This document shows positions 27,357 through 48,103 of a stretch of 64,000 bases of DNA, one piece after another. The DNA is from Meiothermus sp. GTDB lineage: Bacteria; Deinococcota; Deinococci; Deinococcales; Thermaceae. The number at the start of each line of letters is the position of its first letter. The first letter of the stretch is position 1. The DNA lies in contig NZ_BPIM01000001.1 of assembly GCF_026004115.1 (NCBI RefSeq), forward strand, positions 3,172,594 through 3,236,593. Direction: 5' to 3'. The position numbers were made by a program, and so were the translations under genes. Below the pieces are notes generated by a model, which was given only the letters and a program-made list of their open reading frames with translations, was not told the origin of the DNA and searched no databases.

Positions 27357-27626
27357 TACCGGATTCAAAAAGATAATCATCCAAACCAAAGATCCCCCAG
27401 AGGCTAACTTTTTGAATCCTAGAGCACACCCCTCCCTGTCGGTCGGCGAAGAAAGCGTCTGCCTTCCAAGGGGCTTACGCCCTCCGCTACGCGGATAACT
27501 TCCAAGGGGCTTACGCCCTCCGCTACGCGGATAACTTCCAAGGGGCGGTATCGCCCTCCGCTACGCGGATAACTTCGGCCCTGTTAGTTCGCCGCCATCC
27601 GGCGCCGAACTAACCGAATCTGGTAT
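27356..27626. repeat. MITE-like modular intergenic repeat, copy 3 (271 bp, longest and most complete)
   Basis: The ends ATACCGGATTC...GAATCTGGTAT form an 11 bp terminal inverted repeat with 1 mismatch. It fills the whole gap between two convergent stop codons. Confidence 0.8.
27464..27573. repeat. Tandem triplication of a 36-38 bp module inside MITE copy 3
   Basis: TTCCAAGGGGCTTACGCCCTCCGCTACGCGGATAAC occurs twice, followed by the variant TTCCAAGGGGCGGTATCGCCCTCCGCTACGCGGATAAC. Confidence 0.85.
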
Positions 27627-30733: not shown

Positions 30734-31342
30734 TCAAAGGATCTCCTGCACCTCCGGGGCCACCACCATATGACACTTGCGGCAGCGCGGCTCGTAGGCC
30801 TCGCTGGCCCCCACCAGGATCACGGGATCGTCGTAGCGGGCTGGTTTGCCGTTCACAAAGCGCTGGGTGCGGGTCGCAGGAGCTCCACAAACCGGACACA
30901 CGGCATAAAGTTTTTCCACGTACTCGGCGCGGGTCAAAAGGTCGGGCATAATGCCAAAGGGCTCTCCACGAAAGTCCATGTCCAGACCAGCGCAAATCAC
31001 CCGCACGCCCTTGTCGGCAAGCTCCAGCACTAGCGGTATCAAACCCGCATCAAAAAACTGTGCCTCATCTACTGCGACCACATCGGGAAGAGGCTCGGTC
31101 AGGTGGGCCCGCAGCTCGGCCGAATCGTACACCGCAATAGCCTCTGCGCGCCTGCCGTCGTGGCTCGAGACATCTGTTGCGTGCTAGCGGGCATCTATGC
31201 GCGGCTTGAATACCAGCACCCGCTGCCGGGCAATCAGGGCCCGCTTGATGCGCCGGATCAATTCGTCCGACTTTCCCGAGAACATCGGCCCAACCACAAC
31301 TTCAATCCAACCCTGGTGGTGCGGAAGATGGGGCAAGCTCAT
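30734..31342 (-). pseudogene. tdk: Thymidine kinase with an in-frame TAG replacing a conserved Tyr codon
   Basis: ATG 31342 gives [52 protein letters not shown], then TAG at 31186-31184. The same frame continues [24 protein letters not shown]...CPVCG...CRKCH. The TK consensus at the stop position is D.RY. Confidence 0.8.
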
Positions 31343-31509
31343 AACCGGGGCCTAGCATATAGCATTGGCGGTATCGCCGACCGAAAGCGAGAGCAAGCGA
31401 GCAATCCAGTTAGCCGGTAGCCGTTCATGGGCCAAGGTATTGCGTGCACGGTTCACAGGCAACAAACAACCTGACTGCGCCAGGGTTCCATCCAGGACAA
31501 AGGGTTCTT

Positions 31510-31757
31510 ATACCAGATTCGGTTGATTCTTTACCAAACGGCAGCGAATCTACCCGACCAAAGTTATCCGCGTAGCGGCGGGCAATACCGCCGTTGGAAA
31601 GGGCGACGCTTTTTCACCGACCGACAGGGAGCGGAATGCTCTAGAAAGACAACCTCTGGGATATTTGGTTTTGCAACGGTCTTTTTGCATCCTAAAGCAC
31701 TCCCTTCGGCCCTGTTAGTTCGCCGCCATCCGGCGCCGAACTAACCGAATCTGGTAT
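31510..31757. repeat. MITE-like modular repeat, copy 4 (248 bp, composite), immediately upstream of the cas operon
   Basis: A perfect 15 bp terminal inverted repeat, ATACCAGATTCGGTT...AACCGAATCTGGTAT. The inner modules are in the opposite orientation to copy 3. Confidence 0.8.
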
Positions 31758-31904
31758 TAGAGCGGTCTCCAAGTACTTCCGCTCTAAAGTGGCAGCACAT
31801 TTAGCGTAATATACTCAGATTATATTCTAATACTTTTTACTATTTCTAAAAAATGGACGGTTGTTGGACGGTATTGTGCTAACTTTGCAACAAGCAAAAC
31901 TGCC

Positions 31905-34900
31905 ATGTTCGGTCTGCCGGAACTCAACTACCATCAGAGCAAAGCCTTGCGGCTCCTGCGGTTGCTGGAGCTCCTGCAACAAAAGCCCTGGAAGCCGGCC
32001 GAGCTGCGACAGGAGCTGGGCCTGGGCGAGCGAGCCATTTTCGACTACCTGAACGAGGTAGAAACCCTGGCCGAGCGCCTGGGGTTGCGCTTTGTGCACG
32101 ACACCCTGCGCAGCACCTACCACATCGAGGTGGTGGAGCGCCTGAGCCTGACCGAGACGGTGGTGGCTTTTGCTACCATCCGGATGCTGGCCCACCACGC
32201 ACCGGGAACCAACAAGACCTACCAGGAAGCCCTGCGCAAGCTGGCCAAGCACCTGCCCGAGCCGCTCAAAACCCTAGCTCTAAAAAGCACCAATGCCTTG
32301 CAGCTTCGTCCTCCCAGCCTGAACGGGGCCAACCTCGAGACCCTGACCCAGGGCTGGCTGGAGCGGCGGGTGGTGGCTTTCGAGTACCGCATCCCGCAGG
32401 GTGGGGTCTTTGGGGTGGAGCTCGAGACCTATTTCATCGAGGTTTCGCGGGCCAACATGGCCGTTTATGTCATTGGGAAAGACCGCTTGTATGGCCGCAA
32501 CATCCATTACCTGGACAACCTTAGAACCTACAAACTTGAGCGCATCCAGCGGCCCCGCTTGCTGGAGGCCTCCTATAGCATTCCCGACGATTTCGACCCA
32601 GGCCTGTACCTCTCGACCGCCTGGGGCATTGTGGGCGGCGCAAACCCGCAAAAGGTATTGCTTCGCTTCACGCCAGAAGCCAGCGAACGCATCCGTGAAG
32701 GGGGCTATCCCAATCTTTCAATCCTTGAGCAGCTCGAGGGTGGCGACACTCTCGTTGAAATTACCGTTGGCACCGATCATATTGGATTCCCCCTCGAGCT
32801 GCTTCCTTGGATACAAAGCTGGGGGCCCCGGGTAGAAGTACTAAAGCCCACCAGTCTGCGGCAGAAGTGGCTGGCCGAGGCCCGCCAGGTGCTCGAACGG
32901 TACGACCCCCAGCGGGTAACGGGCCCCAAAACCTACTGGGCCCACACCCACAAAGACCCCACCCGCTGGCAAACCCTGCAGGAACATGCCGCCCAGGTAG
33001 CCCGCCTGGCCGCCGAAAAAGCCCGCCCCTTTGGCGATTCGGAGAAGGCCGACCTAGCGGGAAAGCTCCACGACTTGGGCAAGTATGGCGACCTCTTCCA
33101 GCGCCGCCTCGAGGGCAAGGAAAAAGGCCTCGACCACTGGTCGGCGGGGGCTCATGTGGCCTTGTTCGAGTACCGCGCCCCCGAGCTGGCTTTAGCCATT
33201 CAGGGCCATCACATCGGGCTCCAGAGCGGGGCCAAAGAAAGCCTCAAGGCGATGCGGCTACGCGAGGATGGCCAGGGCTACCCGCCCGAGCTGCGCCTGA
33301 GTGAGACCCGCCTGGAGGTGCTTCAAGAGCGCTTGCAATCCGACGGCCTCGAGCTGCCCCCGCCCAGCCAGGCCCAGATAGCGCTGCCCCAAAGCGCCGC
33401 GGCCATGCTCGAGACCCGGATGCTCTTCTCGGCCCTGGTCGACGCCGACTTTCTCGACACCGAACGGCACATGCAGGGCGAGGTGCGGCCCAGCCCTCCC
33501 CCATTGCAAGCAGCGCTGGCCTTAGAGAAGCTCGAGGCCCGCCTGCAGGCACTCGCAAACCAGGAAGGTCTGCCCCAGCCCATCCGCGCACTTCGTCGGC
33601 AGGTCTCCGAAGCCTGTGCAGCGGCAGCGCAAGCACCGGCCCGACTCTTTACCCTCACCGCCCCCACCGGCAGCGGCAAAACCCTGTCCATGCTTCGCTT
33701 TGCCCTACAGCGCGCCGCGCAAGACCCGCGCATAAGGCGCATCGTGGTGGTGCTGCCCTACCTTTCTATCCTCGACCAAACCGTGCACATCTACCGCGAG
33801 CTATTCGCCGACTTCGGGCCCCACTACATCCTGGAAGACCACAGCCTGGCCTACCGACCGCTGCGCAAGGAGTTTTCCGATGAGCAAGACATCCTGGAAC
33901 GGGAGCGCCGCCTCTTGAGCGAAAACTGGGAGGCCCCCATCATCCTGACCACCCACGTGCAACTCCTGGAGAGCCTGCACGCGAGCCGCCCCGGCGCCTG
34001 CCGCAAGCTGCACAACCTGGCCGGGAGCGTGCTGCTGTTCGACGAGGTACAAACCCTGCCCACCCACCTGGCCGTGCCCACCCTGAAGACCCTTGCGCAC
34101 CTGGCCAGCGACAAGTACAGCTCGGTGGTGGTCTTTGCCACCGCTACCCAGCCGGCCTTCGATACCCTGCACGACAAAATCCAGGAAAACGAACCGCAGG
34201 GCTGGCAGCCGCAAGAAATTGTACCGAACCCTGAAGCGCTCTTTGGCCAAAGCCAGCGAGTAGCGGTGGAGTGGTGGCTCAAAAACCCCACCCCCAACCC
34301 GGCCCTGGCGACCCTACTGGCCGCGGATGAACAGGCCCTCGCGGTGCTCAACCTCAAGCGGCAGGCCCAGGCCCTCTTTCAGCAGGCCCAGGAGCGGGGC
34401 TTGGAGGGGCTTTATCACCTATCCACCGCGCTGTGTCCGGCCCACCGGAAGGCGGTACTGGGGCAGATCAAAGCCCGTCTGGATCAACGAGAACCTTGCC
34501 GCTTGATCGCTACCCAGGTGGTGGAGGCCGGGGTGGAGCTGGACTTTCCCATAGGCTACCGGGCTTTGGGGCCTTTGGAGGCCATCGCCCAGACCGCCGG
34601 GCGGGTCAATCGGCACGGCCTGCGCAGGGAAGGCCGTCTGGTGGTCTTTTTGCCCGAGGACGAGGGCTACCCCGACCGGGCCTACGCCCAGGCCGCCCAG
34701 CTCACCCGGGCCTTGCAGGCCGAGGGGGGCCTCGAGCTGACCCCCGCCGCCTTCCGCCGCTATTACCAAAGCCTCTATGGGCTGCAAAAGGTGAGCGACC
34801 CCGAGGTCGAACAACTCATCAAAACCCAAAACTACGCCGAACTCGCCCGCCGCTACCGCATTATCGAGTCTCCGGCAGTGAACGTGGTGGTGCCCTACAA

Positions 34901-35159
34901 CGAGGAGGCCCTGGCCCTCATGCAGGAAGCCCGTGAGCGGGGCATCGCCGCCGACTGGATTCACCGGGCGCGGCCCTACACGGTGCCCTTCTTTTTGCCC
35001 CACGGGGGGCCGCCGGCCTTCCTCGAGACGGTCTTTCTGCGCTACGGTCGCCAAAAAAGCGAGGTTCCCGACTGGTTTTTATGCCCCGACCCGGCCTGCT
35101 ACCACCCTTCGCTGGGCTTCACCCCTGCCGAGGGCGGGCAGGCAGGTCTGGTTATTTGA
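31905..35159 (+). CDS. cas3: Cas3 (HD nuclease plus SF2 helicase, type I-C) fused to an N-terminal HTH-WYL-WCX transcription-factor-like module
   Basis: Residues 1 to about 335 have an HTH (SKALRLLRLLELLQQKPWKPAELRQELGLGERAIFDYL), a WYL-type core (VVAFEYR..VYVIGKD..LRTYKLERI) and a C-terminal extension (RVEVLKPTSLRQKWLAEARQVLERY). From about residue 344 the sequence is Cas3: HD motif KLHDLGK, helicase motif I APTGSGKT and motif II LLFDEVQ. Confidence 0.9.
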   Translation: MFGLPELNYHQSKALRLLRLLELLQQKPWKPAELRQELGLGERAIFDYLNEVETLAERLGLRFVHDTLRSTYHIEVVERLSLTETVVAFATIRMLAHHAPGTNKTYQEALRKLAKHLPEPLKTLALKSTNALQLRPPSLNGANLETLTQGWLERRVVAFEYRIPQGGVFGVELETYFIEVSRANMAVYVIGKDRLYGRNIHYLDNLRTYKLERIQRPRLLEASYSIPDDFDPGLYLSTAWGIVGGANPQKVLLRFTPEASERIREGGYPNLSILEQLEGGDTLVEITVGTDHIGFPLELLPWIQSWGPRVEVLKPTSLRQKWLAEARQVLERYDPQRVTGPKTYWAHTHKDPTRWQTLQEHAAQVARLAAEKARPFGDSEKADLAGKLHDLGKYGDLFQRRLEGKEKGLDHWSAGAHVALFEYRAPELALAIQGHHIGLQSGAKESLKAMRLREDGQGYPPELRLSETRLEVLQERLQSDGLELPPPSQAQIALPQSAAAMLETRMLFSALVDADFLDTERHMQGEVRPSPPPLQAALALEKLEARLQALANQEGLPQPIRALRRQVSEACAAAAQAPARLFTLTAPTGSGKTLSMLRFALQRAAQDPRIRRIVVVLPYLSILDQTVHIYRELFADFGPHYILEDHSLAYRPLRKEFSDEQDILERERRLLSENWEAPIILTTHVQLLESLHASRPGACRKLHNLAGSVLLFDEVQTLPTHLAVPTLKTLAHLASDKYSSVVVFATATQPAFDTLHDKIQENEPQGWQPQEIVPNPEALFGQSQRVAVEWWLKNPTPNPALATLLAADEQALAVLNLKRQAQALFQQAQERGLEGLYHLSTALCPAHRKAVLGQIKARLDQREPCRLIATQVVEAGVELDFPIGYRALGPLEAIAQTAGRVNRHGLRREGRLVVFLPEDEGYPDRAYAQAAQLTRALQAEGGLELTPAAFRRYYQSLYGLQKVSDPEVEQLIKTQNYAELARRYRIIESPAVNVVVPYNEEALALMQEARERGIAADWIHRARPYTVPFFLPHGGPPAFLETVFLRYGRQKSEVPDWFLCPDPACYHPSLGFTPAEGGQAGLVI

Positions 35160-35207: not shown

Positions 35208-35954
35208 ATGCGAAGTTTTGTGCTCGAGGTTTGGGGGGAGCTGGCTTGTTTTACAAGGCCCGAGTTCAAGGTGGAGCGCTTCAGCTACCCCCTCATCACC
35301 CCCAGCGCAGCCCGGGGCATTTTCGACGCCATCTACCTGGACTTTGACCCCCAGAGCCAAAAGTCCCTCATGTACTGGCAGGTGGAGCGCATCGAGGTGC
35401 TCAGGCCGATACGCTACATCAGCCTGATGCGCAACGAGGTCAAGGAAAAGGCCAGCCCACGCAACATCCAGGCCTGGATGAAAGACCCCAGCCGCCTCGA
35501 GCCCCTCTATGCCGACGCCACCAGTAACGAAACCGGCCAGGACACCAAAGGCCGCACCCAGCGCCAGACCATGGCCCTCAAGGACGTGCGCTACCGCCTG
35601 AGCGCCCACGCGGTGCTCTACCGGGAAGACCCCGCCCTGCGCCAGAAAATTGAGCACAGCTTTGAGCGGCGGGCCCGTGCCGGGCAGTGCATCTACCAAC
35701 CCTACCTGGGCTGCCGCGAGTTTAGCGGCTACTTCCGGCTGGTCGAGCCCGGCGAGGAAGCCCCGCCTGTGGACTACCACGAAAAGATCGGCTGGATGCT
35801 CTACGACGTCTTCGACCTCTCGCGACCGGGGGCCCCGCTGCGTACCGACAAAGGGGAAAAGCCCCGCATCAGCCTGTTCGAGGCCGAGGTGGTGGCGGGG
35901 GTGCTGCTGGTGCCCCCCTATGAAAGCGAGCGGGTCAAGAAGGGGGTGGGTTAA
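35208..35954 (+). CDS. cas5: Cas5c (Cas5d), type I-C pre-crRNA endonuclease subunit
   Basis: [43 protein letters not shown] is the typical Cas5d N-terminus. Confidence 0.9.
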
Positions 35955-37798
35955 TGCTCGCGCAGTTGGTGGAGTACGCCCGGCAAAAAGGCCTGGGCAC
36001 CGAACCCGGCTTTACCACCAAGGAGATTCGCTGGCTGGTGGGGGTGAGTCCGGCTGGAGAGTTCACCGAGCTGATCGACCTGAACCAAACCAAACCTGCC
36101 CCCGACCTCTCCCAGCCCGACATGATGAGCCTGCCCGGCTACTTGCGGGCGCAGGGTCACACCGTCGAGCAGGCCGCCCACTTCCTGGCCGACACCTGTG
36201 CGGTGGTGTTTGGGCTGGCCGAGCGGGACGCCGCAGGGAATATCAAAAAGCCCGAGGAACATGCCAAAAACCTCCTGAAGCACGCTGCCTTCCGGCTGCT
36301 CATCCAGTTGGCGGCCAGAAACGTACCGCTCCTCGAGCCCATCGCCAAGGCGCTCTCCGACCCCCAGCAGGTGCAGGCTTTCTTGCAGAAGCTGGAGGCC
36401 CAAGCCCAGAAAAGGGGGCCAGAAAGGCTCAAATCCACCGACAAAATCTCTTTTTTCGTGAACGGCCGGTGCGTGCTGGACTGCCCCGACTGGCACGACT
36501 GGTGGCGGCAGTTTAGGGCCCAGGCCTTCCCCAAGTCGGGCGAAGAGGGCCAGATGCCCTCGTTCGCCAGCGGCGAGCTGGTCACTCCGGCTTCCACCCA
36601 CCTCAAGGTCACCCGGCTGGGCGGGAGCGCCTTTGGCCACGCTTTGGTCACCTACGACAAGGAGGCCTTCGAGTCCTATGGCCTCTCCCAAGGGGAGAAC
36701 GCGGCGGTAGAGGAGGAGGCCGCTACCGCCTACCGGGCCGGGCTGGACGCGCTGTTGGAGAAAGCCCAAACCCTGGGCGAGATGAAGGTGGTGGTCTGGT
36801 ACGACCGCGAGATTCCCGAGGAAGACGACTTCTTCCGCGACCTCTTCGCCCCCAGCAGCGGCGAGGCCGAGGAGCTACAGGCCCTCGAGCGCGCCCACAA
36901 GGTGCTACAAGCCCTCAAGACCGGCCAGGCCCCGCCCAGCCTGCGCCAGGCCCGCTTTTTCGCCACCGCCATGAGCCCAGCCTCGGGCCGGGTGATGGTG
37001 CGCGACTGGCAAATCGGCAGGCTGGAAGACTTCGTGGAGGCCGTAACAACCTGGTTTGAGCAACTGGCCATCGTGCGCAAGGGCGGCGACCGCCCGGCCA
37101 GCCTGCCGGGGTTGAACCGGCTCTTCCTGAGCCTGCAGCGGCCCAAATCCCCCGACCAAAAGCTGGACGACTACCTCAAGCCCGTCAAAACCTTGCAACT
37201 CCCCCTCTGGCGAGCCGCCCTGAACCCCAGCCTGCCCATCCCTTACGCCGCCATCGCCAAAATTATGGAGACCCACACCGCCGAGGTGATGACCGGGGCC
37301 TTTACCGAGGCCCTGAACACCCAGAAACCCGACGCCGCCGCCCTGGGGCGCATCTACGCCCGCATGGGGCTTTTGAAGGCCTACCACATCCGCAAAGGAG
37401 GGAAGATGAGTACCGCCCTAGACCCCCACCACCCCAGCCCGGCCTACCACTGTGGCCGCTTGATGTGCCTCCTGGCCCAGATCCAGGAGGCCGCCAGCGA
37501 GTCCGAGATCAACGCCGGGGTGGTGCAGCGCTACTACGGCGCTGCCAGCAGCACGCCGGCCCTGGTGCTGGGCCGCCTCACGCGGCTTTCGCAGCACCAC
37601 CTGAGCAAAATGGCCAAGGACGCCCCCGGCCTGGCCTACTGGTTCAACACCCAACTGGCCCAGGTCTGGAGCGCCCTGGGGCCCAGCCTCCCGCGCACCC
37701 TGAGCCTGGAAGAGCAAAGCCTTTTTGCCCTGGGCTACTACCATCAACTGGCCCAAAGCCGCAAGGGCAAGCAGGAGGGCGAGACTCAATCCGCATAA
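35954..37798 (+). CDS. cas8c: Cas8c (Csd1), type I-C large subunit
   Basis: Assigned by position between cas5c and cas7c, its 614 aa size and a Csd1-like N-terminus. The ATG overlaps the cas5 stop (TAATG). Confidence 0.85.
37406..37798 (+). CDS. cas11: Predicted internally translated small subunit Cas11c (130 aa, in frame within the cas8c 3' end)
   Basis: An in-frame ATG at 37406 is preceded by a strong AAAGGAGGG Shine-Dalgarno. Type I-C systems are known to make Cas11 by internal initiation in cas8c. Confidence 0.5.
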
Positions 37799-37828
37799 AT
37801 CCAAGCCAAACCCTGAAAGGAGATGTTT

Positions 37829-38818
37829 ATGTCCCAGCCCATCCAGAACCGCTACGAGTTTTTGCTCTTCTTCGACGTGCAAGACGGCAACCCCAACGGC
37901 GACCCCGACTCGGGCAACGCCCCCCGCGTAGACCCCGAGGACGGCCACGGCCTGGTGAGCGACGTGGCCCTCAAGCGGCGCATCCGCAACTACGCCCAGG
38001 CCGCCGGAGCCCCCATCTTTGTGCAGCACGGCACCAACCTCAACCGCTCCATCTTCGAGGCCCACGAGAAAACCGAGGGTGGGTTCACCGCAACCAAAAC
38101 CAAGGACAAGGTAGAAGCGGCCCGCCGCTGGATGTGCGGGCAGTTCTTCGACGTTCGCACCTTTGGGGCGGTGATGAGCACCGGGGCCAACGCCGGGCAG
38201 GTGCGGGGGCCGGTGCAGATCACTTTTGCCCGCAGCCTCGACCCCATCTTTCCCGCCGAGTTCAGCATCACCCGCGGCGCGGTGGCCGAGGACGTCAAGA
38301 ACGCCAAAACCCTGGAAGACTACCTGCGCTGGGAGAAAGAACAACCCGAGGACAGGCTGCGCACCATGGGCCGCAAGAGCCAGGTGGCCTACGGCTTATA
38401 CCTGGCCAAGGGCTTCATCAGCGCCCACCTAGCCCAGGGCACCGGCTTCAGCCAGGCCGATCTTAAGCTTTTGGTGGAAGCCCTTTTGAACATGTACGAC
38501 CACGACCGCAGCGCCTCCAAAGGCATGATGGCCACCCGCCGGCTTTACCTTTTCCAGCACGTGGGCAACGGCGACCCCCACAACGCCGAGCAAAACAAGC
38601 GCCAGGCCATGCTGGGCTGCGCCCCTGCCCACCGCCTGCTCGATCTGGGCCAGGTGGTCTCGGTGGGGCGACTCGACGAAAGCAAACCCCCCCGCCGCTT
38701 CGCCGACTACGAGGTAAAAGCCGACCCCCAGAAGCTACCCAAAGGGGTGCGGATGTTGGAACTGGACGCCTGGGACGAGGCCCGCTTTGACCGCTGGATG
38801 GGAGGGCAGGATGCCTAG
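37829..38818 (+). CDS. cas7: Cas7c (Csd2), type I-C backbone subunit
   Basis: [49 protein letters not shown] is the Csd2 hallmark. The start is at MSQPIQ, after AGGAG. Confidence 0.9.
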
Positions 38819-40103
38819 AACCATCCCCTTTTCGCCCCCCGAACTCAAGACACCTGCGTTGGAGACCTGGACGCTCAGGCTCAAAACCATCACGCCAATG
38901 TTCGGCGGCAGCGCTACCCCGCGCGAGGTAGACCCGGAAAACCCTGTTCGGGCGGCCAGTGTGCGCGGGCACCTGCGCTTTTGGTGGCGGGCTGTGGCGG
39001 GGGGACGGTATGCCAGTGCGAAAGAGTTGTTCGAGGCGGAGGAGGAAATTTGGGGCAGTGATGCCATCCCAGGAAAAGTTTCCATAAAGGTATTGGAGGC
39101 GAGGGCATCAGAGCCCAAGCCTTGCTGTACTTATGAGCATCCGCGAAGAGATGGGGGAACTGAGCTAAAAACCTACCCTTATTTTGGGGAGTACCCCGGA
39201 TATGCTCTTTTCCCGTTTCAGGGCAAGGCCCGGAGAGACAAACAAAGTGGCGTAATAACTATTACTGAGCAGCCATCTAAGTGTCTCGAAGAAGTAAGCT
39301 TTACCCTATGCCTTTCTTTTCCTAACTACATCAAGCCCCAAGTAGAACCGGCCGTCGCCTTTTGGCTAAAGCTTGGCGGAATAGGGGCGCGTACAAGGAG
39401 AGGCTGCGGAAGCTTAGAGATTGTTGAAGATTCGCTTCCTCAAAACACGAAGCTCGAATCTTTATTGGGTCGCAAAGCAAATAGTCTTCTCACAACGGTT
39501 CCAATCGTTTGTTTTGTGGGCGAAGAGAAAGAATCGCCCATCCAAGCATGGAAAGAGGCAGTTGAGGTTTACAAGGAGTTCCGGCAAGGAAAAGATTACG
39601 CCAGAGACCCAGGCTCTAATCCCAAATCTGCAAAACTCGGACGTTCAAGGTATCCAGAACCCGATACTATTCGCGAAATGTTTTCGCAAGAGAGTTGGCG
39701 GCACGGAGTAAAACATCCAGTTAGAGGCTTTCCTCGAGCCGATCTAGGCCTCCCGATAGTTTTTCACTTTCAGGAAGAAGGCCCTAAAGATGAAAACTTC
39801 TACCTCGAGTCCAACTATTCACGCGGTTCACGGTTTGCCTCGCCGGTCATTACGAAAGCGATGAAAAAGAATAATGGCTATGCTCCGGCTATTATTCTGC
39901 TCAACGCACCTCATGTGTGGGAGGCTGGAAACTTTACGTTGAGGTTGCGTTCGGATGTGCATGTAATAAAAGAGAACTTTGTTAATCTTGATCGGCACAG
40001 TCGAGAGCACATACCACCGCTGAGAATGTTTGGCTCCAAACCGATTCGCGAAGCATTGTGGGATTTCATAAAGTCCAAGGGCTACCAGGAGGTGCGCCTA
40101 TGA
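38811..40103 (+). CDS. cmr1: Cmr1 (type III-B RAMP)
   Basis: ITPMFGGSA...[16 protein letters not shown] is the Cmr1 signature. The ATG overlaps the cas7 stop by 8 nt. Confidence 0.8.
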
Positions 40104-41584
40104 GCCACCTGCTCTCCATCTCCCTGGGCCCAGTGCAAGACTTCATTGCCGCCGCGCGCCGCACCACCGACCTGTACGCAGGTTCGCAGATTTTGCAGGA
40201 ACTGAGCAAGCACGCCGCGCAGCACTTGGCTTCGCAGGGGGCTACGCTCATCTTTCCAGCCAACCAGAACGCCGACGGGGCCAACAAGATTCTGGCCGAG
40301 GTAAAGGACGACCCTAAGCAGCTTGCCGCGAAGACCAAAAAAGCCGTTCAGGACAGGCTATTGAGTCTCTGGGACGAGACCAAAGGCAAACTTCCCGCCG
40401 AGCAACAGAACCTGATTGACCAAGCAAGGGCCCAAGAGCAGCTTGGGTGTTTTCTCGAGTTCTACGCCGCCTGGGTGCCGCTGCCCAACAAGGAGGCCTA
40501 CAGGGAGGCCCGGCTTCAGGTGGAGCGCCTCTTGGCCGGGCGCAAGGCTTTGCGGGACTTCGCCCCCACCCAGCAGAGCGACGACGGCGTGCCCAAGTCC
40601 CCCCTCGACCCCTCCTGGGCGGCGGTGATCGATCCCCGACAGTGGGGGGATGTCAACATCCGCCTGGCCGTTGGCTCCTACCGCCCACTGCGCATCAAGC
40701 CCACCGAGCACCTCGACGCCATCTCGCTCCTCAAGCGCTGTTACGGGGTGCTGAACTCGGACAAAGTGGTGGACACCCGCACCATGGCCCGGCGCTCCTG
40801 GAGGCCGGAAGCAAAGCCCGACGAGCGCTACGGCGAGGAAGACGACCATATCCCAGAGCCCCAGCCCTACCTGGCCATCCTGGTGGCCGACGGCGACCGC
40901 ATGGGCGAGCTGATCGCGCGGCAGGACGACCCCAATGCCCACCGTGGGCTATCAAAAACCCTGGACGACTTCGCCAAAGAAGCCCGCAAAATTGTGCCCA
41001 AGCACAGGGGCTTTATGGTCTATTCGGGCGGGGACGATGTGCTGGCCCTCCTGCCAGTGAATCGGGCCATCGCCTGCGCCAAAGACCTCTCGGAGGAGTT
41101 TCGCCACCGGGTCAAGGGCACCCTTTCGGCAGGAATCGCCATTGTGCACTACCGCGAGCCGCTTTCCATTTCCCTGCAACATGCGCGATATGCGGAGAAA
41201 GCCGCTAAGAACGGTGGACGGAATGCCCTGGCGGTGGCCCTGCACACCCGTGGTGGCTCGCCGGTCACGGTGGTGCAGCCCTGGAACGAGCTGTCCTGGG
41301 ACGAGCTGCTCGAGGCCTACCAAAACCGCCAGATTACCCGTGGCCTGGCCCATGAACTGCGCGACCTGGTGCAGGAGTGGCAGGACGACATGCGGGCCGA
41401 TTACCTCCATAAGGAAGCCCAGCGGGTTCTGTCTCGCAAAGAGGCCCGCAATCTAAAAATCCCCGCACCCGCCAGCGACACCCCCACCTACCGCAAAGCC
41501 CTGCTGCGCTTTGTGGATCAGCTCATCATCGCCCGCTTTTTGAGTGGCCTTCAGGAGGAAGAGCATGCCGGAAAGAGTGCTTGA
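40100..41584 (+). CDS. cas10: Cas10/Cmr2, short form without an HD domain, cyclase GGDD motif intact
   Basis: It starts directly at SLGPVQDFIAAARRTTDLYAGSQIL. It has VADGDRMG and YSGGDDVLALLP and is 494 aa. There is an ATGA overlap with cmr1. Confidence 0.9.
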   Translation: MSHLLSISLGPVQDFIAAARRTTDLYAGSQILQELSKHAAQHLASQGATLIFPANQNADGANKILAEVKDDPKQLAAKTKKAVQDRLLSLWDETKGKLPAEQQNLIDQARAQEQLGCFLEFYAAWVPLPNKEAYREARLQVERLLAGRKALRDFAPTQQSDDGVPKSPLDPSWAAVIDPRQWGDVNIRLAVGSYRPLRIKPTEHLDAISLLKRCYGVLNSDKVVDTRTMARRSWRPEAKPDERYGEEDDHIPEPQPYLAILVADGDRMGELIARQDDPNAHRGLSKTLDDFAKEARKIVPKHRGFMVYSGGDDVLALLPVNRAIACAKDLSEEFRHRVKGTLSAGIAIVHYREPLSISLQHARYAEKAAKNGGRNALAVALHTRGGSPVTVVQPWNELSWDELLEAYQNRQITRGLAHELRDLVQEWQDDMRADYLHKEAQRVLSRKEARNLKIPAPASDTPTYRKALLRFVDQLIIARFLSGLQEEEHAGKSA

Positions 41585-42698
41585 AATCCACGCCCTGAGC
41601 CCCCTGCTTTTCCGCGACGGCAGGCCCTTTAGCGCCGCCGACGGTACCGAGACCGCCGCCCGGAGCCTGAGTCTGCCCTTGCCCAGCACCGTGGCGGGCT
41701 TCGTGCGGACGCAGGTGGGGCTGGCCGAGGGCAAGGGGTTTAGCCAGGAGCACCTGCAAAATCTGCACGGCCTTCAGGTGTGCGGGCCGCTGCTGGCTCG
41801 AGACGACGAGGTGTTGCTACCCGCCCCCCGCGATGCGGTGGTGTACCGGGATGCTGAAGGCAATGCCCAGGTCATGAAGCTGACCCCCTTTAGCCCCCCC
41901 GCGGGCCCAGGCTGTGACCTGCCGGACGGCCTTTTGCCCTTGCAGATCACCCAGGACGTGAAGCCCGAATCGGGCTACAACTTCTGGACGGCCCGCAACG
42001 TGGAGCGCTGGCTATTGGACGAGAGCCTGGTGCCCGAAAATATCTCTGGCCTCCCCACCGAGACCCGCGTGCACGTGGCCATGGACCCCGTCAAGGGCAA
42101 AGCCAGGGAAGGCCAGCTATACAGCGTGGCCTACCGGCCTTTGGAGATGGGCGAGAACCCCCAAACCTACCAGCCCGCCAGCCTGCGGGTGCGGCTCTCG
42201 CTGTCCAACGGGCAGACCCCGGCCCCCATCGGCCACCTGGGGGGCGAACGCCGTCCGGTGGCGGTGGAGGTGAAGGAAAGCCTTTCCGAGCACTGGTTCG
42301 ATTGCCCGGAGGCTATCAAAAAGCGCTTCGCCGAGATGGGAAAAGGGGCTCGAGTGCGGCTGGTGCTGGCCACGCCAGCCCTGTTCGAACACGGCTGGAA
42401 ACCTGGCTGGATCGAGAAATCGGGCAGTGGCGAGCTTCATCTGCCTCGAGGTCTGTGCCGGGTGAAACTCAAGCTGGTGGCCGCCGCAGTGGGGCGGCGC
42501 GAGCCGGTGAGCGGCTGGAGCCTGCGGGAAAACCGGCCCAAGCGGGTGCGTTGGATGGCGCCCGCAGGCAGTGTGTATTTCTTCGAGGTGGTGGAAGGCC
42601 AACCAGCCGACCTGCTGGAAAGCTGGCTCAGGCCCATTAGCGACCTCAAGCAAGATCGCAAGGACGGCTTTGGACTGGCCCTTTGGGGAGTGTGGTGA
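41565..42698 (+). CDS. cmr3: Cmr3
   Basis: ALSPLLFRDGRPF N-terminal motif. The start follows AGGAGGAAGAGC and overlaps the cas10 3' end by 20 nt. Confidence 0.85.
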   Translation: MPERVLEIHALSPLLFRDGRPFSAADGTETAARSLSLPLPSTVAGFVRTQVGLAEGKGFSQEHLQNLHGLQVCGPLLARDDEVLLPAPRDAVVYRDAEGNAQVMKLTPFSPPAGPGCDLPDGLLPLQITQDVKPESGYNFWTARNVERWLLDESLVPENISGLPTETRVHVAMDPVKGKAREGQLYSVAYRPLEMGENPQTYQPASLRVRLSLSNGQTPAPIGHLGGERRPVAVEVKESLSEHWFDCPEAIKKRFAEMGKGARVRLVLATPALFEHGWKPGWIEKSGSGELHLPRGLCRVKLKLVAAAVGRREPVSGWSLRENRPKRVRWMAPAGSVYFFEVVEGQPADLLESWLRPISDLKQDRKDGFGLALWGVW

Positions 42699-42700
42699 AC

Positions 42701-43489
42701 ATGCACGCAAAGATGATTTTTTGGCAGGCCCTTACGCCGGTGCACCCCGGCACCGGGCAGGACAGCAGCAGCGTGATTGACCTTCCCGTAGCCCGCGAAG
42801 CGGCCACGGGTTTTCCGGTGATACCGGCCAGCAGCCTTAAGGGGGTGCTGCGCGATGGGCGCGATGATGAGCAAAGCAATAGACTTTTCGGCTCCTTAGA
42901 AAATGCAGCCGAACTGACCCTGACCGATGCCCGCCTCTTGTTGCTGCCGGTGCGCTCGTATGCGGGCACCTTTGCTTTCCTGACCTGCCCGCTGGTGCTC
43001 GAGCGGCTCAAACGCGACCAGAAGGCCTTGGGGCTTCCTGAGCTGAAAGCTCCGATACCGAACCCGGGACAGACCGAAGCTCTCGTACCCAAGAACACTC
43101 AAATTGTGCATGCTAACCAGGTAATCCTCGAGGACATAGACCTGAGTGCCACTGTCGGAGGCGCAGAAGCGCTGGCGCAGGAACTGGGGCAACTGGTCTT
43201 TGGCGCGGAGTCGAGCTACTTTGTGGGGCGCTTTGCATTGGTATCCAACGAAGTGTTCGATTACTTTTGCGAGATGGGCCTCGAGGTCATCGCCCGGGTA
43301 CGCCTGGAAAACGAGAGCAAAACCGTAGCCAACGGCGCTTTGTGGTACGAGGAAGCCATCCCTGCCGAGACGGTGTTCTCGAGCTTCGCCATCGGCAATG
43401 GGTTCGAGGAACTGAACCGGCCCTACATCCAGATAGGCGGCCAGGCCAGTGTGGGCCGGGGGCTGTTGCGGCGGTTGGGGGGTGAGTAG
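42701..43489 (+). CDS. cmr4: Cmr4 (RNA-cleaving backbone RAMP)
   Basis: ALTPVHPGTGQDSSSVIDLPVAREAATGFPVIPASSLKGVLRD is the Cmr4 pattern. Confidence 0.9.
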   Translation: MHAKMIFWQALTPVHPGTGQDSSSVIDLPVAREAATGFPVIPASSLKGVLRDGRDDEQSNRLFGSLENAAELTLTDARLLLLPVRSYAGTFAFLTCPLVLERLKRDQKALGLPELKAPIPNPGQTEALVPKNTQIVHANQVILEDIDLSATVGGAEALAQELGQLVFGAESSYFVGRFALVSNEVFDYFCEMGLEVIARVRLENESKTVANGALWYEEAIPAETVFSSFAIGNGFEELNRPYIQIGGQASVGRGLLRRLGGE

Positions 43490-43491
43490 CC

Positions 43492-43870
43492 ATGTCCCAA
43501 ACACGCAGCCAAAAGGACATGCAGCAGGCGCTGGAGCTGGTGAGCAGCCTCGAGCGGGCCGACCCCGAGGTCAAGCGCATCTACGGCGGCCTCTGCCACA
43601 GCTTCCCGGTGATGGTCCTGCAGAGCGGGCTGTGCCAGGCCGTGGCCTTCAGCGCTGATAAAGCCAGCGGCGACGGTAAGCGGGCCCAGGCGCACCAGCA
43701 TTTGCTTGAGCACCTCGGCGAGATGCTGGGCGTAAGGGGCAAGCTGCTGGAGGCGTTGCAGTCGGCACCCACGCCCCTGTACATGCACCACACCCGGCGG
43801 GTGCTGGAAGCGTGGGTGTACTTCAAGCGCTTTGCGGTAAGCGTACTCGAGGTGCAAGCGGGGGAAGACC

Positions 43871-43881
<11 letters not shown>
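43492..43881 (+). CDS. cmr5: Cmr5 (type III-B small subunit)
   Basis: 129 aa helical protein with the motif IYGGLCHSFPVMVLQSGLCQAVAF, positioned between cmr4 and cmr6. Confidence 0.85.
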
Positions 43882-44841
<960 letters not shown>

Positions 44842-44845
<4 letters not shown>

Positions 44846-45900
44846 GCACTGTCGTCCTCACCACCGTCGGCACCAGCCTGCTCTTCAACGCCCGCCGCGA
44901 GGGCCTGGTAGAAGACCACCAGATTCTGGCTTACCTGAAGCAAGACCCCAAAAAAGCCAGCGCCGAGACCAACTCGCTTTCGCGCATTTTGCAAAAAGGC
45001 GATGAGGTGGTGCTGCTGCACAGCGACACCTTCGAGGGCGCTAACGCCGCAAACTTGCTGAAGCTTTTCTACGAGGAGCAGGGGGTGCCTTGTGGTCGGG
45101 TGCGCATACCCGGCCTGGCCTACGAGGCCCAGGGCTTTGTGGACTTTGGCCTAAAGAACTTTGTGCGCACCCTGGCCGGCGAGATTCGTAAGGCTGCCAA
45201 GGGGCAGAAAGACGTCATCATCAACGCCACCGGGGGCTTCAAGGCCGAGATTTCCTATGCCACCGTGCTGGGGCTGGTGTTCAAGGTTCCGGTCTGCTAT
45301 ATTCACGAGCAGTTCAGGGAAATTGCCATCCTGCCGCCCACGCCCATCGGTTGGGATAGTAGCTTGTTTGTTTTGTATGGCGACTTTTTCGACTGGCTGA
45401 GCGAAGGCGAGGGGGGCGTGCGCCCCAAATCGGAGGTGCAACCCAGGGCAGCTCTGTTGCCCGAAGAAGCACAGGTTTTGCTGGAGGAGTTCGAGCTCGA
45501 CGGAAAGCCTTACGTGGGGCTATCCCCTTTGGGCGAGGCCTACTTCGAGGCCTTTCGGGGTGAACTCGAGCAGGCCCAGACCATCCCCATCTACCTCGCG
45601 CCCAAGGCCAGGCGCACCTGGGAGGGCCTCGAGCCCGCCACCAAAGAGCGCTACCGCAAGCTGCTGGAGCGCCTGCGCCTGCCCAACCGCGCTACCAGCA
45701 GCGAACTCAAAAGCGGCGGAGGCGACGCTCTGGGGTTTCCCAAAGGGCACACGGACGAGCGGGTTTTTTACGCCGAGAAGGACGGTGCGCTGTATGTGTT
45801 CGCCCTCACCCACCACGGCCCGGAGTACGAGCGGATGTGCCAGGAGGGCTTCTACTGGCGTGATTATTCTCCGCAGGATTTCACCCTGCTCGACGAGTGA
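44842..45900 (+). CDS. CARF domain protein with a C-terminal RelE/ParE-like domain (cOA-responsive effector candidate)
   Basis: N-terminal CARF motifs LTTVGTSLL and INATGGFKAE. By eye, the C-terminal roughly 95 aa (IYLAPKARRTWEGLEPATKERYRKLLERL..ERVFYAEKDGALYVFALTHHGPEYERM) align position by position with E. coli RelE. There is an ATGA overlap with cmr6. Confidence 0.7.
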
Positions 45901-45927
45901 AGCCCCCAAAGCCTGTCCGGAGGCTTT

Positions 45928-46584
45928 ATGGACGAGACGGACGACCTATTCCCCCCAATAGACCCGCCCAGCCCCGCCGAGCGGGAGCCCCTACCCCTGA
46001 GCGCCCTGGCCCAGTACACCTACTGCCCCCGCCGGGCCGCGCTGATACTGCTGGAGGGCGAGTGGGAGGACAACGAGTACACCCTGCGCGGAACCCGCGC
46101 CCACGAGAATGTGGACATTCCCGAAGGGCTCTTGCGCGAGGGGGTCTGGGTCGAGCGGGCCTTGCCCATCTGGTCGGAGCGGCTGGGGCTTTCAGGCCGG
46201 GCCGATGTGGTGGAGTTTGTGAACGGGGTGCCCTACCCGGTGGAGTACAAGGTGGGCCAGCGGTGGCCCCGCGAACTGGCCCGCAAAGCTGCCGAGGTAC
46301 AGCTCTGCGCTCAGGCCTTGTGTCTGGAGGAGATGTTCGGCCAGAGCGTACCCGCCGGGGCTTTGTTTAGCAAGGCCAGCCAGCGCCGCCGGGAAGTCCT
46401 GTTTACCCCGGAGTTGCGGGCCGCTACCCTGGCCACCCTCAGCGCCCTGCGCAAGCTTTTGCGTCAGGAACGCTTGCCCCCGCCCGCAGCAGACGAACGC
46501 TGCCGCCACTGCTCCCTTCATGCGGTGTGCATGCCCGAGGTGCCCCAGGCGTTGGTGCATTTCCTCAGCCACAACCAGCCATGA
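45928..46584 (+). CDS. cas4: Cas4 (RecB-like nuclease with Fe-S cluster)
   Basis: YTYCPRR at the N-terminal Cys and C-terminal CRHCSLHAVC. Confidence 0.9.
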   Translation: MDETDDLFPPIDPPSPAEREPLPLSALAQYTYCPRRAALILLEGEWEDNEYTLRGTRAHENVDIPEGLLREGVWVERALPIWSERLGLSGRADVVEFVNGVPYPVEYKVGQRWPRELARKAAEVQLCAQALCLEEMFGQSVPAGALFSKASQRRREVLFTPELRAATLATLSALRKLLRQERLPPPAADERCRHCSLHAVCMPEVPQALVHFLSHNQP

Positions 46585-47600
46585 CTACCGAGCTGCTCAA
46601 TACCCTCTACATTCAGACCCAAGGCGTATACCTGCGCCTCGAGAGCGACACCCTGCGCATCCAGCATGAGGACGTAACCCTGCGCCATGTCCCGCTGCAC
46701 CACCTGGGGGGCTTGGCGCTTTTTGGCAACGTGCTGGTTTCGCCCTTTTTGCTCCACCGCTGCGCCGAGGAGGGCCTCGAGGTCGCCTGGTTTAGCGAGT
46801 CGGGCCGCTTTCAGGGGCGGCTGGCAGGGCCGGTCTCGGGGAATGTGCTGCTGCGGCGGGCTCAGTACCGGGCCCTGGATAACCCTTCGACCTGCTTGTA
46901 CCTGGCCGCGCGCTTTGTGGAGGGCAAGCTTAAGAACGCTCGCCTGGTGCTACAGCGAGCCGTGCGCGAGCGGGGCGAAACCGAGGCTCTGAATCAAGCA
47001 CTTTTTGAACACGAAGCGGCCCTGCGCCAGCTTCCCCAAGCCCGAACGGTGGACGAGGTGCGGGGCCTCGAGGGACAGGCGGCCAGCGCCTATTTCGCGG
47101 CTTTTGGCGATCTGTTGCTCTCGGGCGAGTTCCGCTTTGAAGGGCGCAACAAACGCCCCCCGCGCGACCCCGTAAATGCCCTGCTGGGCTTTGTGTATGC
47201 CCTGCTCACCACCCAGTGCACCGCCGCCCTGGAAGGGGTAGGGCTCGACCCCCAGGTGGGCTTTCTGCATGCCCTGCGACCCGGTCGCAACGCCTTGGCC
47301 CTGGACTTAATCGAGGAGTTTAGAGCCTGGTGGGCCGACCGGCTGGTGCTTTCGATGATCAACCGCAAGCAGCTCTCTCCCGAGCACTTCGAGGAGCGCC
47401 CCGGCGGTGCGGTTTTGCTGAGTGAGGAAGGGCGAAAGGCGGTTATCGTGGCCTTTCAGGGCCGCAGGCAGGAAACCCTACAGCACCCTTTGTTCAAAGA
47501 GCCCGTACCCATCGGGTTGCTGCCCCACATCCAGGCCCGCCTGCTGGCCCGCTACCTGCGGGGCGACCTGCCCGAGTACCCCCCGTTTGTAGGAAGGTAG
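46581..47600 (+). CDS. cas1: Cas1 integrase
   Basis: TLYIQTQGVYLRLESDTL...NALLGFVYALL...GFLHALRPGRNALALDLIEEFR. ATGA overlap with cas4. Confidence 0.95.
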   Translation: MTTELLNTLYIQTQGVYLRLESDTLRIQHEDVTLRHVPLHHLGGLALFGNVLVSPFLLHRCAEEGLEVAWFSESGRFQGRLAGPVSGNVLLRRAQYRALDNPSTCLYLAARFVEGKLKNARLVLQRAVRERGETEALNQALFEHEAALRQLPQARTVDEVRGLEGQAASAYFAAFGDLLLSGEFRFEGRNKRPPRDPVNALLGFVYALLTTQCTAALEGVGLDPQVGFLHALRPGRNALALDLIEEFRAWWADRLVLSMINRKQLSPEHFEERPGGAVLLSEEGRKAVIVAFQGRRQETLQHPLFKEPVPIGLLPHIQARLLARYLRGDLPEYPPFVGR

Positions 47601-47602
47601 AT

Positions 47603-47902
47603 ATGGAGCGGCTGGATATTCTGGTTACCTACGATGTCAACGTAACCTCCGCAGACGGCCAGACCCGCTTGGCCCGGGTCGCCAAGGTCTGCAAGAACTT
47701 TGGTCAGCGGGTGCAGATGTCGGTGTTTGAGTGCCGCGTGACGCGGGCTCAGCTCGAGGACATGGAGGCCAAACTACTCAAAATCATCGAGCCCGACAAA
47801 GACAGCCTGCGCATCTACACCCTGCCCGGAGGCCGGGAGAAGTGCTTGCGGGTACACGGCCAGGACAAGTACACCGACTTCGACGACCCCTTGGTGGTCT
47901 AG
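47603..47902 (+). CDS. cas2: Cas2
   Basis: 99 aa with VTYDV...RVAKVCKNFGQRVQMSVFEC. Confidence 0.9.
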   Translation: MERLDILVTYDVNVTSADGQTRLARVAKVCKNFGQRVQMSVFECRVTRAQLEDMEAKLLKIIEPDKDSLRIYTLPGGREKCLRVHGQDKYTDFDDPLVV

Positions 47903-48103
47903 GCCACCCTGGCACTTGCTTTGCGCGAACCCCAAGCAAGTGCCAAAACCCGGGGGGGTTCGCGCAAGCCGAGAAATCGGCTAGGGGACATTGAAAACCT
48001 GTTTTCCCTTCACCTTGCCCCACCCTGCGCCGGAACCCTTTTCAGGGGGGTTCGCGCAAACGGCCTCTTGAGCTTTGTCCAGCACGCACGCTAGAATGAG
48101 GCC
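47903..48103 (+). promoter_or_regulatory. CRISPR leader (201 bp) with a candidate promoter TTGAGC-N18-TAGAAT (48068-48097) and repeated motifs
   Basis: It lies between the cas2 stop and the first repeat. Degenerate repeats are at the far end of the array, so this end is the leader. The -10 element ends 6 nt before repeat 1. Confidence 0.6.

Follow-up and report, generated by a model that had tools for sequence, protein, structure and literature searches.

A DriD/PafBC-type WYL regulator module fused to a type I-C Cas3 in a Meiothermus CRISPR locus

Introduction

[quoted passage not shown] The WYL regulators DriD, PafBC and CapW have recently been shown to be sensors of single-stranded DNA (ssDNA), and sll7009 is a precedent for the control of a type I CRISPR system by a WYL protein (PMC4012209). 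Fusions of WYL and Cas3 were mentioned by Makarova et al. 2014 (PMC4012209), a mention repeated in a preprint on the Pif1 helicase of Thermotoga elfii, on which a WYL domain acts as an accessory ssDNA-binding unit. The present study deals with a gene of this kind, WYL-cas3, which lies in a stretch of 64,000 nucleotides from Meiothermus sp. (assembly GCF_026004115.1, contig NZ_BPIM01000001.1, positions 3,172,594 to 3,236,593); the whole stretch is referred to as the window, and positions are counted from its first letter.

Sequence comparisons and structure models describe the product of this gene as one polypeptide consisting of a regulator module of the DriD/PafBC type, a flexible linker and a catalytically intact type I-C Cas3. 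The fusion is real, conserved and under selection. An initial annotation, made from the letters of the window alone, had proposed a complete module of helix-turn-helix (HTH), WYL and WCX domains at the N-terminus of a type I-C Cas3, and this is confirmed by the single open reading frame (ORF), by the Pfam and NCBIfam matches, by the AlphaFold2 (AF2) model and by Foldseek. Its novelty was overstated, as such fusions were already mentioned in 2014, the proteins are public and analogues with I-E Cas3 exist; the database entries from M. hypogaeus, M. cerbereus, M. ruber, M. rufus, Calidithermus and others are annotated plainly as Cas3''. It knew of no functional characterisation of such a fusion, and our literature search likewise found no functional or structural study of WYL-Cas3 fusions. 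New here are the assignment to DriD/PafBC, the selection analysis per domain, the mosaic evolution with its truncations, an exchange in the recognition helix that is specific to the fused clade, and a conserved promoter with tandem repeats.

Architecture of the fused protein

The ATG of the fusion ORF is the earliest start after the upstream in-frame stop. The ORF and the domains that it encodes, all on the plus strand, are as follows.

31905–35159, plus strand: WYL-cas3 fusion ORF, 1084 amino acids (aa), uninterrupted
31905–32138, plus strand: winged HTH (wHTH) domain, residues 1-78, from the AF2 elements and an alignment with the DriD wHTH
32139–32309, plus strand: three-helix bundle or linker domain, residues 79-135, with AF2 helices 82-98, 104-115 and 121-132
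32310–32609, plus strand: WYL Sm-like beta-barrel, residues 136-235, from Pfam WYL, the model and the pocket residues
32610–32909, plus strand: WCX domain, ending at residue 335, from Pfam WCX
32910–32942, plus strand: flexible linker YDPQRVTGPKT, residues 336-346, variable in homologues, with a low predicted local distance difference test (pLDDT) and a near-neutral ratio of nonsynonymous to synonymous substitutions (dN/dS)
32943–33464, plus strand: Cas3 HD nuclease domain, residues 347-520, NCBIfam cas3_HD at 358-519
33465–35159, plus strand: Cas3 superfamily 2 helicase and C-terminal domain, residues 521-1084 and the stop codon, from cas3_core, DEAD and Cas3-like_C_2

The three-part regulator of the initial annotation is recovered in its winged HTH, its WYL domain and its C-terminal domain, but an additional three-helix bundle (residues 79-135) stands between the wHTH and the WYL domain. 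The short linker is likewise present, and the HD domain that follows it begins at about residue 347, not at about 344 as had been given.

In the Cas3 part, Pfam matches HD (360-440), DEAD (580-750), Cas3-like_C_2 (809-904) and also ResIII. The NCBIfam profile cas3_HD scores 63 bits (cut-off 43.45), and cas3_core 99.3 bits, marginally under its cut-off of 102.45. The residues H361, H389-D390, H411, H435-H436, D513 and D515 are invariant in an alignment of 52 sequences, as are motif I (TGxGKT, 588-593), motif II (DE, 713-714), motif III (TAT, 746-748) and motif VI (QxxGRxNR, 896-903). Because of these invariant residues and motifs and the cas5c-cas8c-cas7c context described below, the effector is an intact type I-C Cas3.

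The linker differs in length and sequence between the homologues in the alignment of the fused proteins. In the AF2 model of the full-length protein, residues 333-340 have a pLDDT below 50, and the predicted template modelling score (pTM) is 0.68. Judged by pLDDT and pTM, this model gives no support for a rigid arrangement of module and Cas3.

Affiliation of the regulator module

At the level of sequence profiles the three domains are recognised with unequal clarity. The Pfam WCX match covers residues 248-330 with 45 bits (cut-off 23.9; family PF25583), the WYL match covers residues 143-218 with 21.3 bits and thus lies 0.5 below its cut-off of 21.8, and direct Pfam HTH matches are weak. The weak WYL and HTH scores are backed by AF2 and Foldseek, so that profile searches and structure prediction together support the domain assignment. 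For residues 1-343, AF2 modelling on the basis of 90 stand-alone relatives reaches a mean pLDDT of 92.6. The model comprises, from the N-terminus, winged HTH (9-75), helical bundle (82-132), beta-barrel (155-223) and C-terminal alpha/beta domain (249-333). Its wHTH consists of helices 11-26, 31-38 and 42-58 and strands 62-66 and 71-75, with the recognition helix at about 42-58. The whole wHTH-WYL-WCX set is therefore present, with the winged HTH taken from the model, the WYL domain as a barrel and the WCX domain from Pfam. Factors of this kind are free-standing proteins of about 280-350 aa, whereas here the module forms the N-terminal third of 1084 aa.

In the comparison of the model with the PDB by Foldseek, about 341 columns were aligned to DriD of Caulobacter crescentus in complex with ssDNA and operator (8tp8, E 6e-16), followed in order by PafBC, BrxR and CapW. 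A profile of the stand-alone relatives searched against the PDB gave DriD with an E value of 2e-44 (from residue 6) and PafBC with 7e-43, both over the full length, and BrxR and CapW with about 1e-6. As the profile E values for DriD and PafBC are far stronger than those for BrxR and CapW, the module is placed by profile and model in the DriD/PafBC branch of ssDNA-activated activators and outside the repressor branch. The initial annotation had spoken of a PafBC/BrxR/CapW type, of which the likeness to PafBC stands, while the kinship to BrxR and CapW is much more distant. The bundle at 79-135 also matches the three-helix bundle of DriD (PMC10853764).

Within the WYL domain, the degenerate WYL motif reads V-Y188-V and the closing strand R207-T-Y-K-L-E-R213. 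The WCX motif FPLELLPWIQSWGPRVEVLEP is mostly invariant among the fused proteins; in DriD, the WCX is the dimerisation domain. DriD contacts ssDNA through Tyr168, Arg189, Tyr192, Arg204, Trp206 and Arg207 as well as Arg288 or Leu (PMC9186387, PMC10853764), and the equivalent pocket residues Y161, R182, Y188, R/K207, Y/F209, K210 and L297 are conserved in fused and stand-alone proteins. R213, the equivalent of DriD Arg210, is invariant, and the equivalent of Tyr240 is Val. By homology, ssDNA is the most likely ligand.

Conservation of the fusion and selection

A search with the full-length protein yielded about 30 clusters that share the fused architecture, with lengths of about 1080-1126 aa and identities down to 41%. 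They include M. hypogaeus, M. cerbereus, M. ruber, M. rufus, Calidithermus timidus and C. roseus as well as metagenome-assembled genomes of Thermaceae and Deinococcota. The orthologue of M. hypogaeus is 92% identical and its flanks are syntenic. In a scan of one genome per species, 12 loci match the whole query from WYL to HD, and in several others the match extends far into the HD domain, the named records being all Deinococcota.

Across all of the roughly 30 clusters the reading frame runs on through the junction (...ERY-linker-YWAHT...), as it also does between WCX and HD in the metagenomic contig L001 (78% nucleotide identity). A stop and start hidden between 32900 and 32940, which the initial annotation had considered, is thereby effectively excluded, and an artefact of sequencing or assembly at the junction was rejected on the grounds of the same clusters and independent contigs. 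A first search with the N-terminal module had returned stand-alone proteins only, which would have made the fusion unique; this was dismissed when the full-length and exhaustive representative searches found further fusions. Protein P0097, 96% identical in the module region, is absent from that first listing.

The contig L001 (JGI 3300002510) is the closest metagenomic relative. It carries a frameshift at about 2843, at residue 188 inside the WYL domain, and its gene calls are therefore split into products of 221 aa and 694 aa. The cause is either an error of sequencing or decay of this copy.

The dN/dS was calculated by the Nei-Gojobori method for each domain segment across pairwise comparisons. 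In most comparisons it amounts to 0.05-0.3 for the wHTH, the bundle, the WYL and the WCX domain, which is the same range as for the HD domain and the helicase; the values are 0.14-0.27 for the wHTH and 0.05-0.27 for the WYL domain. The 11-residue linker is near-neutral, with values of mostly 0.5-1.3. Because of this pattern and the linker pLDDT below 50, the protein is regarded as two selected units joined by a free tether.

Mosaic evolution and stand-alone relatives

The identities of module and Cas3 are uncoupled, as P0101 shows 55% in the module and 92% in Cas3, and P0126 76% and 38%, respectively. Two module subfamilies are paired with two divergent families of I-C Cas3, the second of which also lies in an I-C locus. 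Judging from these pairings, module and Cas3 body have been reshuffled repeatedly. In addition, there are WCX-Cas3 forms without wHTH, bundle and WYL: P0119, P0120 and P0122, and those of M. granaticius (L018, 2917 onwards) and Meiothermus sp. QL-1 (L003, 6001-8550). The persistence of these variants suggests that the WCX domain alone, via dimerisation, is useful to Cas3. P0123 was called unfused, and its contig begins only about 90 bp upstream of the gene.

Among the 150 nearest module relatives from the exhaustive representative search, about 20 are longer than 800 aa; nine of these were scanned, seven of which are Cas3 fusions, four of them to the E. coli-type (I-E) Cas3. The initial annotation had suggested a survey of the phylogenetic distribution, and this now comprises the roughly 30 clusters, with Deinococcota among the named records, and these further fusions to I-E-type Cas3. 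In one I-E lineage, unrelated to the one in the window, the fused loci L044 and L045 and the split locus L046 agree in about 98% of their nucleotides as far as the WCX end, beyond which no relationship is left. L044 (5001-8633) is fused, and in L046 (5001-8457) the module is a separate gene of 348 aa, which is followed 4 bp later by a different helicase. Since the sequences of L044 and L046 diverge abruptly at the WCX end, a recombination breakpoint is located at the boundary between regulator and cas3. This boundary is a hot spot of recombination.

The closest stand-alone relatives have about 330 aa and 44-47% identity and are often found directly upstream of cas3, in line with the view that WYL regulators normally stand alone. 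In Meiothermus sp. CFH 77666 (L002), a gap of 26 bp separates a stand-alone WYL gene from a confirmed I-E cas3. In Thermus thermophilus HB8, TTHB187 is a gene which we take to be the I-E cas3. It is assigned to the same operon as the regulator gene TTHB186 (PMC7662524). A fusion arises easily because regulator and cas3 are adjacent and co-transcribed. In Thermaceae and their relatives, a WYL regulator gene with a promoter of its own is normally placed right in front of cas3. That this is the ancestral arrangement, and that loss of the short gap fused the genes, is a well-supported inference, as is the conclusion that the fusion was afterwards kept by selection and shuffled between Cas3 lineages.

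In some loci, a protein of about 500 aa with weak MalT-like TPR matches is encoded directly upstream and on the same strand, in front of stand-alone WYL genes as well as fused WYL-cas3 genes (L001 618-2153, L002 6263-7882, L007 8212-9822, L008 8420-9895; 40-68% identical). This TPR protein may be a partner of the regulator. A homologue of its gene was not found in the window and is absent from M. hypogaeus too. A second or stand-alone WYL regulator was likewise not found in the 64-kb window.

The conserved upstream promoter

Three elements were identified upstream of the fusion gene.

31854–31870, plus strand: tandem direct repeat TGGACG-N5-TGGACG, candidate wHTH operator in the -35 to -20 region, 11 bp from start to start
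31880–31885, plus strand: putative -10 hexamer TAACTT, 9 nt after the second repeat and preceded by TGc (extended -10-like)
31813–31832, plus strand: further conserved element ACTCAGATTATATTCTAATA, with an approximate consensus of CTCAnATTTTnTGA, placed about 20-30 bp before the direct repeats

The direct repeat lies 33-51 bp upstream of the ATG. Of 44 loci that were examined, about 23 share the layout T[G/C/A]GA[C/T][G/A]-N5-same-N8/9-TAnnnT, at a distance to the start of 44-66 bp in nearly all of them and of 100 bp in one, and the intergenic DNA around it is otherwise divergent. In 15 loci the motif in its strict form (TGGAYR-N5-TGGAYG) has exactly one occurrence, on the plus strand and in every case upstream of where WYL(-cas3) begins, and further loci carry the variant half-sites TCGACA and TAGATG. 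Including the -10, the full motif has a single occurrence in the 64-kb window and none in 100 shuffles; a wider regulon in the window was rejected because of this single occurrence. No -35-like hexamer was found at a spacing of 16-18 nt, and a sigma-70 scan of 31100-32000 gave no promoter on the plus strand. PafBC promoters carry a specific motif at about -26 that replaces the -35 (PMC11804915), and DriD promoters are without -35 hexamers (PMC13004042).

The motif is also found before stand-alone WYL genes (L026 and L036, with variant half-sites in L002, L024, L028 and L030). These genes precede a long ORF of the size of cas3, one of which is the confirmed I-E cas3. The TGGACG half-site is common to fused and stand-alone proteins. 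This distribution fits autoregulation by the regulator family, and the fused protein as the binder is not thereby proved. Co-variation of recognition helix and half-site was considered as a proof of self-binding and discarded as uninformative, because near-identical stand-alone helices stand behind TCGACA, TGGACG and TCGATG.

Some further observations concern the upstream intergenic region, which is 770 bp long. With regard to structured RNA, Rfam gave only a chance-level match in this region. With the upstream regions anchored on the repeats, the element ACTCAGATTATATTCTAATA recurs at a constant place in most fused loci and in some stand-alone ones, and it is partly palindromic; it may be the site of another regulator, e.g. 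of the CRP family. Compared with the intergenic region of M. hypogaeus, the window has an insertion of 59 bp (31699-31757) containing a hairpin with 14-nt arms (31714-31745), which looks like a small element of the miniature inverted-repeat transposable element or repetitive extragenic palindromic type.

The type I-C operon

WYL-cas3 heads an operon that also contains the type I-C Cascade genes, all of which score above the cut-offs of the NCBIfam set TIGR01876/TIGR01863/TIGR02589, and the type I-C context of the initial annotation is thus correct.

35208–35954, plus strand: cas5c
35954–37798, plus strand: cas8c
37823–38818, plus strand: cas7c

After cas7c follow a complete III-B set cmr1-6, a CARF protein (Cas_APE2256 family, 44782-45900), cas4, a cas1 of the I-C type (474.8 bits with the cas1_DVULG profile), cas2 and a CRISPR array (48104-51527) with about 47 copies of the 37-nt repeat GTTGCACTCGGGCGAAAGCTCGAGTGAGGATTGAAAC. 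No cas6 was seen in the scanned stretch 35208-47902. The I-C and III-B modules (35208-51527) appear to be one super-operon with a single adaptation module and array, and this layout recurs in M. hypogaeus, in L008 and in L004, there up to the contig limit in cmr2. Further upstream, between gatA and an unannotated ORF of 474 aa, the window contains a tandem repeat with a 36-nt unit (27463-27576, 3.1 copies, 96% match, CTTCCAAGGGGCTTACGCCCTCCGCTACGCGGATAA).

Proposed function of the fusion and alternatives

The reading that we favour, tentatively, is that of a self-regulating, ssDNA-sensing Cas3. The WCX domains would dimerise the fusion protein, and the resulting pair of wHTH domains would bind the tandem TGGACG-N5-TGGACG repeats at its own gene, in place of a -35. 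The promoter would be switched by ssDNA in the conserved WYL pocket, most likely by activation as in DriD and PafBC. The ssDNA could stem from replicating phage, from damaged DNA or from the unwinding and degradation carried out by Cas3 itself, and the outcome would be a feedback of ssDNA, interference products included, on cas3-cas5c-cas8c-cas7c and probably on the downstream cmr genes too. In addition, the WYL-WCX unit may serve Cas3 as an ssDNA-binding and dimerising element. Retained transcription-factor activity is favoured by the conserved operator-like repeats and by the wHTH, which is under purifying selection and in which K13, R43 (the equivalent of DriD Arg37), Y48 and L49 are almost invariant and R16 is conserved among the fused proteins. 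That dimeric Cas3 proteins sense with their WYL pockets the very ssDNA that Cas3 makes, with the consequence either of allosteric gating or of an up-shift of the I-C/III-B super-operon at the repeats upon interference, is a doubtful proposition; if true, it would be a built-in positive feedback from target degradation to cas expression, which is undescribed for any CRISPR system.

Several observations weigh against self-regulation. The equivalent of DriD Arg41 is D47 in the window protein, and in the 30 fused proteins this position is D, Y or N, with no Arg among the leading residues listed, as opposed to Arg in 79 of the 90 stand-alone relatives; the position of Thr38 is Ala in the fused clade. 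Because these two equivalents are replaced and the exchange R41A abolishes DNA binding of DriD (PMC10853764), the operator binding of the fused wHTH may be altered or lost. The beta2-beta3 loop, which in DriD gives Arg176 and Arg178 to ssDNA (PMC9186387), reads QGGVFGV in the window protein and in M. hypogaeus (residues 165-171, nt 32397-32417), with no basic residue in QGGVFG, and an Arg or Lys is found in this loop in most of the fused homologues (QSRTIRV, QQRTFKV, GRRDPTRF). On the side of the DNA, WCX-Cas3 genes without an HTH have kept the promoter motif (L018, with the repeats 50 bp upstream, and probably L003), and the promoters of stand-alone paralogues share their half-sites with those of fused or truncated cas3 genes in M. 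taiwanensis (L012/L026) and M. granaticius (L018/L030). Since the half-sites are equal and the motif is kept in variants without an HTH, regulation in trans by a paralogue is plausible. Finally, the -10 is of the TGn extended type in the window and in some further loci, and the promoter might then be constitutive and the repeats a repression operator. The proposal of the initial annotation that Cas3 is its own repressor is not specifically supported by the findings, given an activator-like module, the lack of a correctly spaced -35, which is a trait of activator-dependent promoters, and the replaced Arg41.

The same observations bear on the reading of the module as an accessory part of the effector, which is the main rival, rather unlikely but not exclusive of self-regulation. 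Here, the module would act mainly at the protein level: the WCX domain would dimerise Cas3 and the WYL domain would add another ssDNA site, of high affinity, by which loading, processivity or the coupling of ATPase to unwinding is tuned, as by the C-terminal WYL domain of the T. elfii Pif1, the wHTH would be a remnant or a non-specific clamp, and a paralogue would bind the repeats. The DNA contacts equivalent to Arg41 and Thr38, which are gone from the fused clade, point in this direction, as do the conserved ssDNA-pocket residues, the persistence of the WCX-only Cas3 in several clusters and species (P0119, P0120, P0122, L003, L018), and promoter half-sites equal to those of stand-alone paralogues in the same genome. 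However, purifying selection acts on the wHTH no less strongly than on any other domain, with R43, Y48, L49 and K13 almost invariant, and most lineages have kept the full regulator of four domains, unlike the Pif1 with its WYL domain only. The disordered linker and the pTM of the full-length model give no support for a fixed contact with Cas3 either, and the window itself contains no stand-alone paralogue that could bind the repeats.

A near-neutral "Rosetta-stone" fusion, in which both parts act as separate proteins would and their linkage adds nothing, is unlikely. It would be in keeping with the distances of only 4-26 bp between WYL gene and cas3 in relatives, with the lability of fusion and fission in the I-E lineage (L044 and L045 fused, L046 split), with unfused and truncated forms within the Meiothermus clade and with the unconstrained linker. 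Yet the in-frame fusion has been kept through divergence to about 41% identity, and the ...YWAHT junction has been preserved through repeated recombination between two module subfamilies and two I-C Cas3 families. There are also independent fusions to I-E-type Cas3. Moreover, the copy number needed of a transcription factor is normally far lower than that of a nuclease-helicase recruited to Cascade, and its place is a different one, which makes it improbable that a strict 1:1 tethering is neutral. That there is no single protein at all, owing to a sequencing or assembly error or to separate products from internal initiation or linker proteolysis, is very improbable: the L001 frameshift, a GTG at V329 with GAGG upstream and a linker whose predicted disorder could open it to cleavage are set against a junction that is open in the roughly 30 clusters and many isolate genomes, against the position of the L001 frameshift at residue 188, away from the in-frame WCX-HD junction, and against the codon of V329, the sole in-frame candidate near the junction for an internal start of a separate Cas3, which was rejected because it is not conserved (L, V or A in homologues).

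The fused sensor, regulator and nuclease offers a compact and thermostable test system with a defined candidate operator, WCX-Cas3 and split variants, and stand-alone paralogues for comparison, in which a connection of ssDNA sensing with the control of a type I CRISPR system is directly testable. It could show whether there is a feedback on cas expression by ssDNA from interference or infection, whether the WYL domain modulates the helicase-nuclease directly, and whether Cas3 acts as a dimer. If the fusion is functionally equal to the two-gene arrangement, it would be a Rosetta-stone confirmation that WYL regulators act together with Cas3.

Comparison with known systems

DriD of Caulobacter crescentus (PDB 8tp8, 7tzv) is the best structural and profile match to the module and shares with it the order of wHTH, three-helix bundle, WYL and WCX as well as most ssDNA contacts. 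It binds its own promoter, and its promoters are without a -35, as here (PMC10853764, PMC13004042). However, DriD is a free homodimer of 327 aa, whereas the module of the window is fused to Cas3, and its site is the inverted repeat ATACGAC-N7-GTCGTAT, in contrast to the direct repeat of the candidate site. The equivalents of Arg41 and Tyr240 are not conserved in the fused module, and the identity is about 18-19%. PafBC of Actinobacteria, which is activated by ssDNA and acts by sigma adaptation, has an alike architecture, and its motif at about -26 resembles the layout of repeat, N8/9 and TAnnnT in the window (PMC11804915). In contrast to the window protein, PafBC is a heterodimer or a tandem fusion of two WYL regulators with a DNA-damage regulon, without a cas operon and without an enzymatic domain.

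CapW of the defence system CBASS, BrxR of BREX and sll7009 of the Synechocystis I-D CRISPR system are wHTH-WYL-WCX regulators that head defence operons, and CapW likewise binds ssDNA in its WYL pocket. They differ from the module in being stand-alone repressors with an RWHVR motif that is absent here, and CapW and BrxR are only distantly matched by the module profile (E about 1e-6).

The WYL-Cas3 fusions of Makarova, Anantharaman, Grishin, Koonin and Aravind 2014 (Front Genet 5:102; PMC4012209) are exactly this class, as WYL, Cas3 HD and helicase are found in one type I polypeptide of the window. That paper covers them in one sentence without anatomy, distribution or function, and in the present protein it is the whole N-terminal regulator that is fused. 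The Pif1 of Thermotoga elfii resembles the window protein in carrying a WYL domain covalently on a DNA helicase of a thermophile. There, only the WYL barrel is present, at the C-terminus and without wHTH and WCX, and the helicase belongs to superfamily 1, whereas the window protein carries a full N-terminal regulator on Cas3. By analogy, the module may nevertheless work like the WYL domain of this Pif1, although it is not an isolated barrel. The pairs of WYL gene and cas3 in Thermus and Meiothermus (TTHB186-TTHB187; CFH 77666, L002) have a homologous regulator in the same position at the head of the operon and with the same promoter layout. They consist of two genes, mostly with an I-E Cas3, and have kept the canonical R-T-x-x-R recognition helix, unlike the fused clade.

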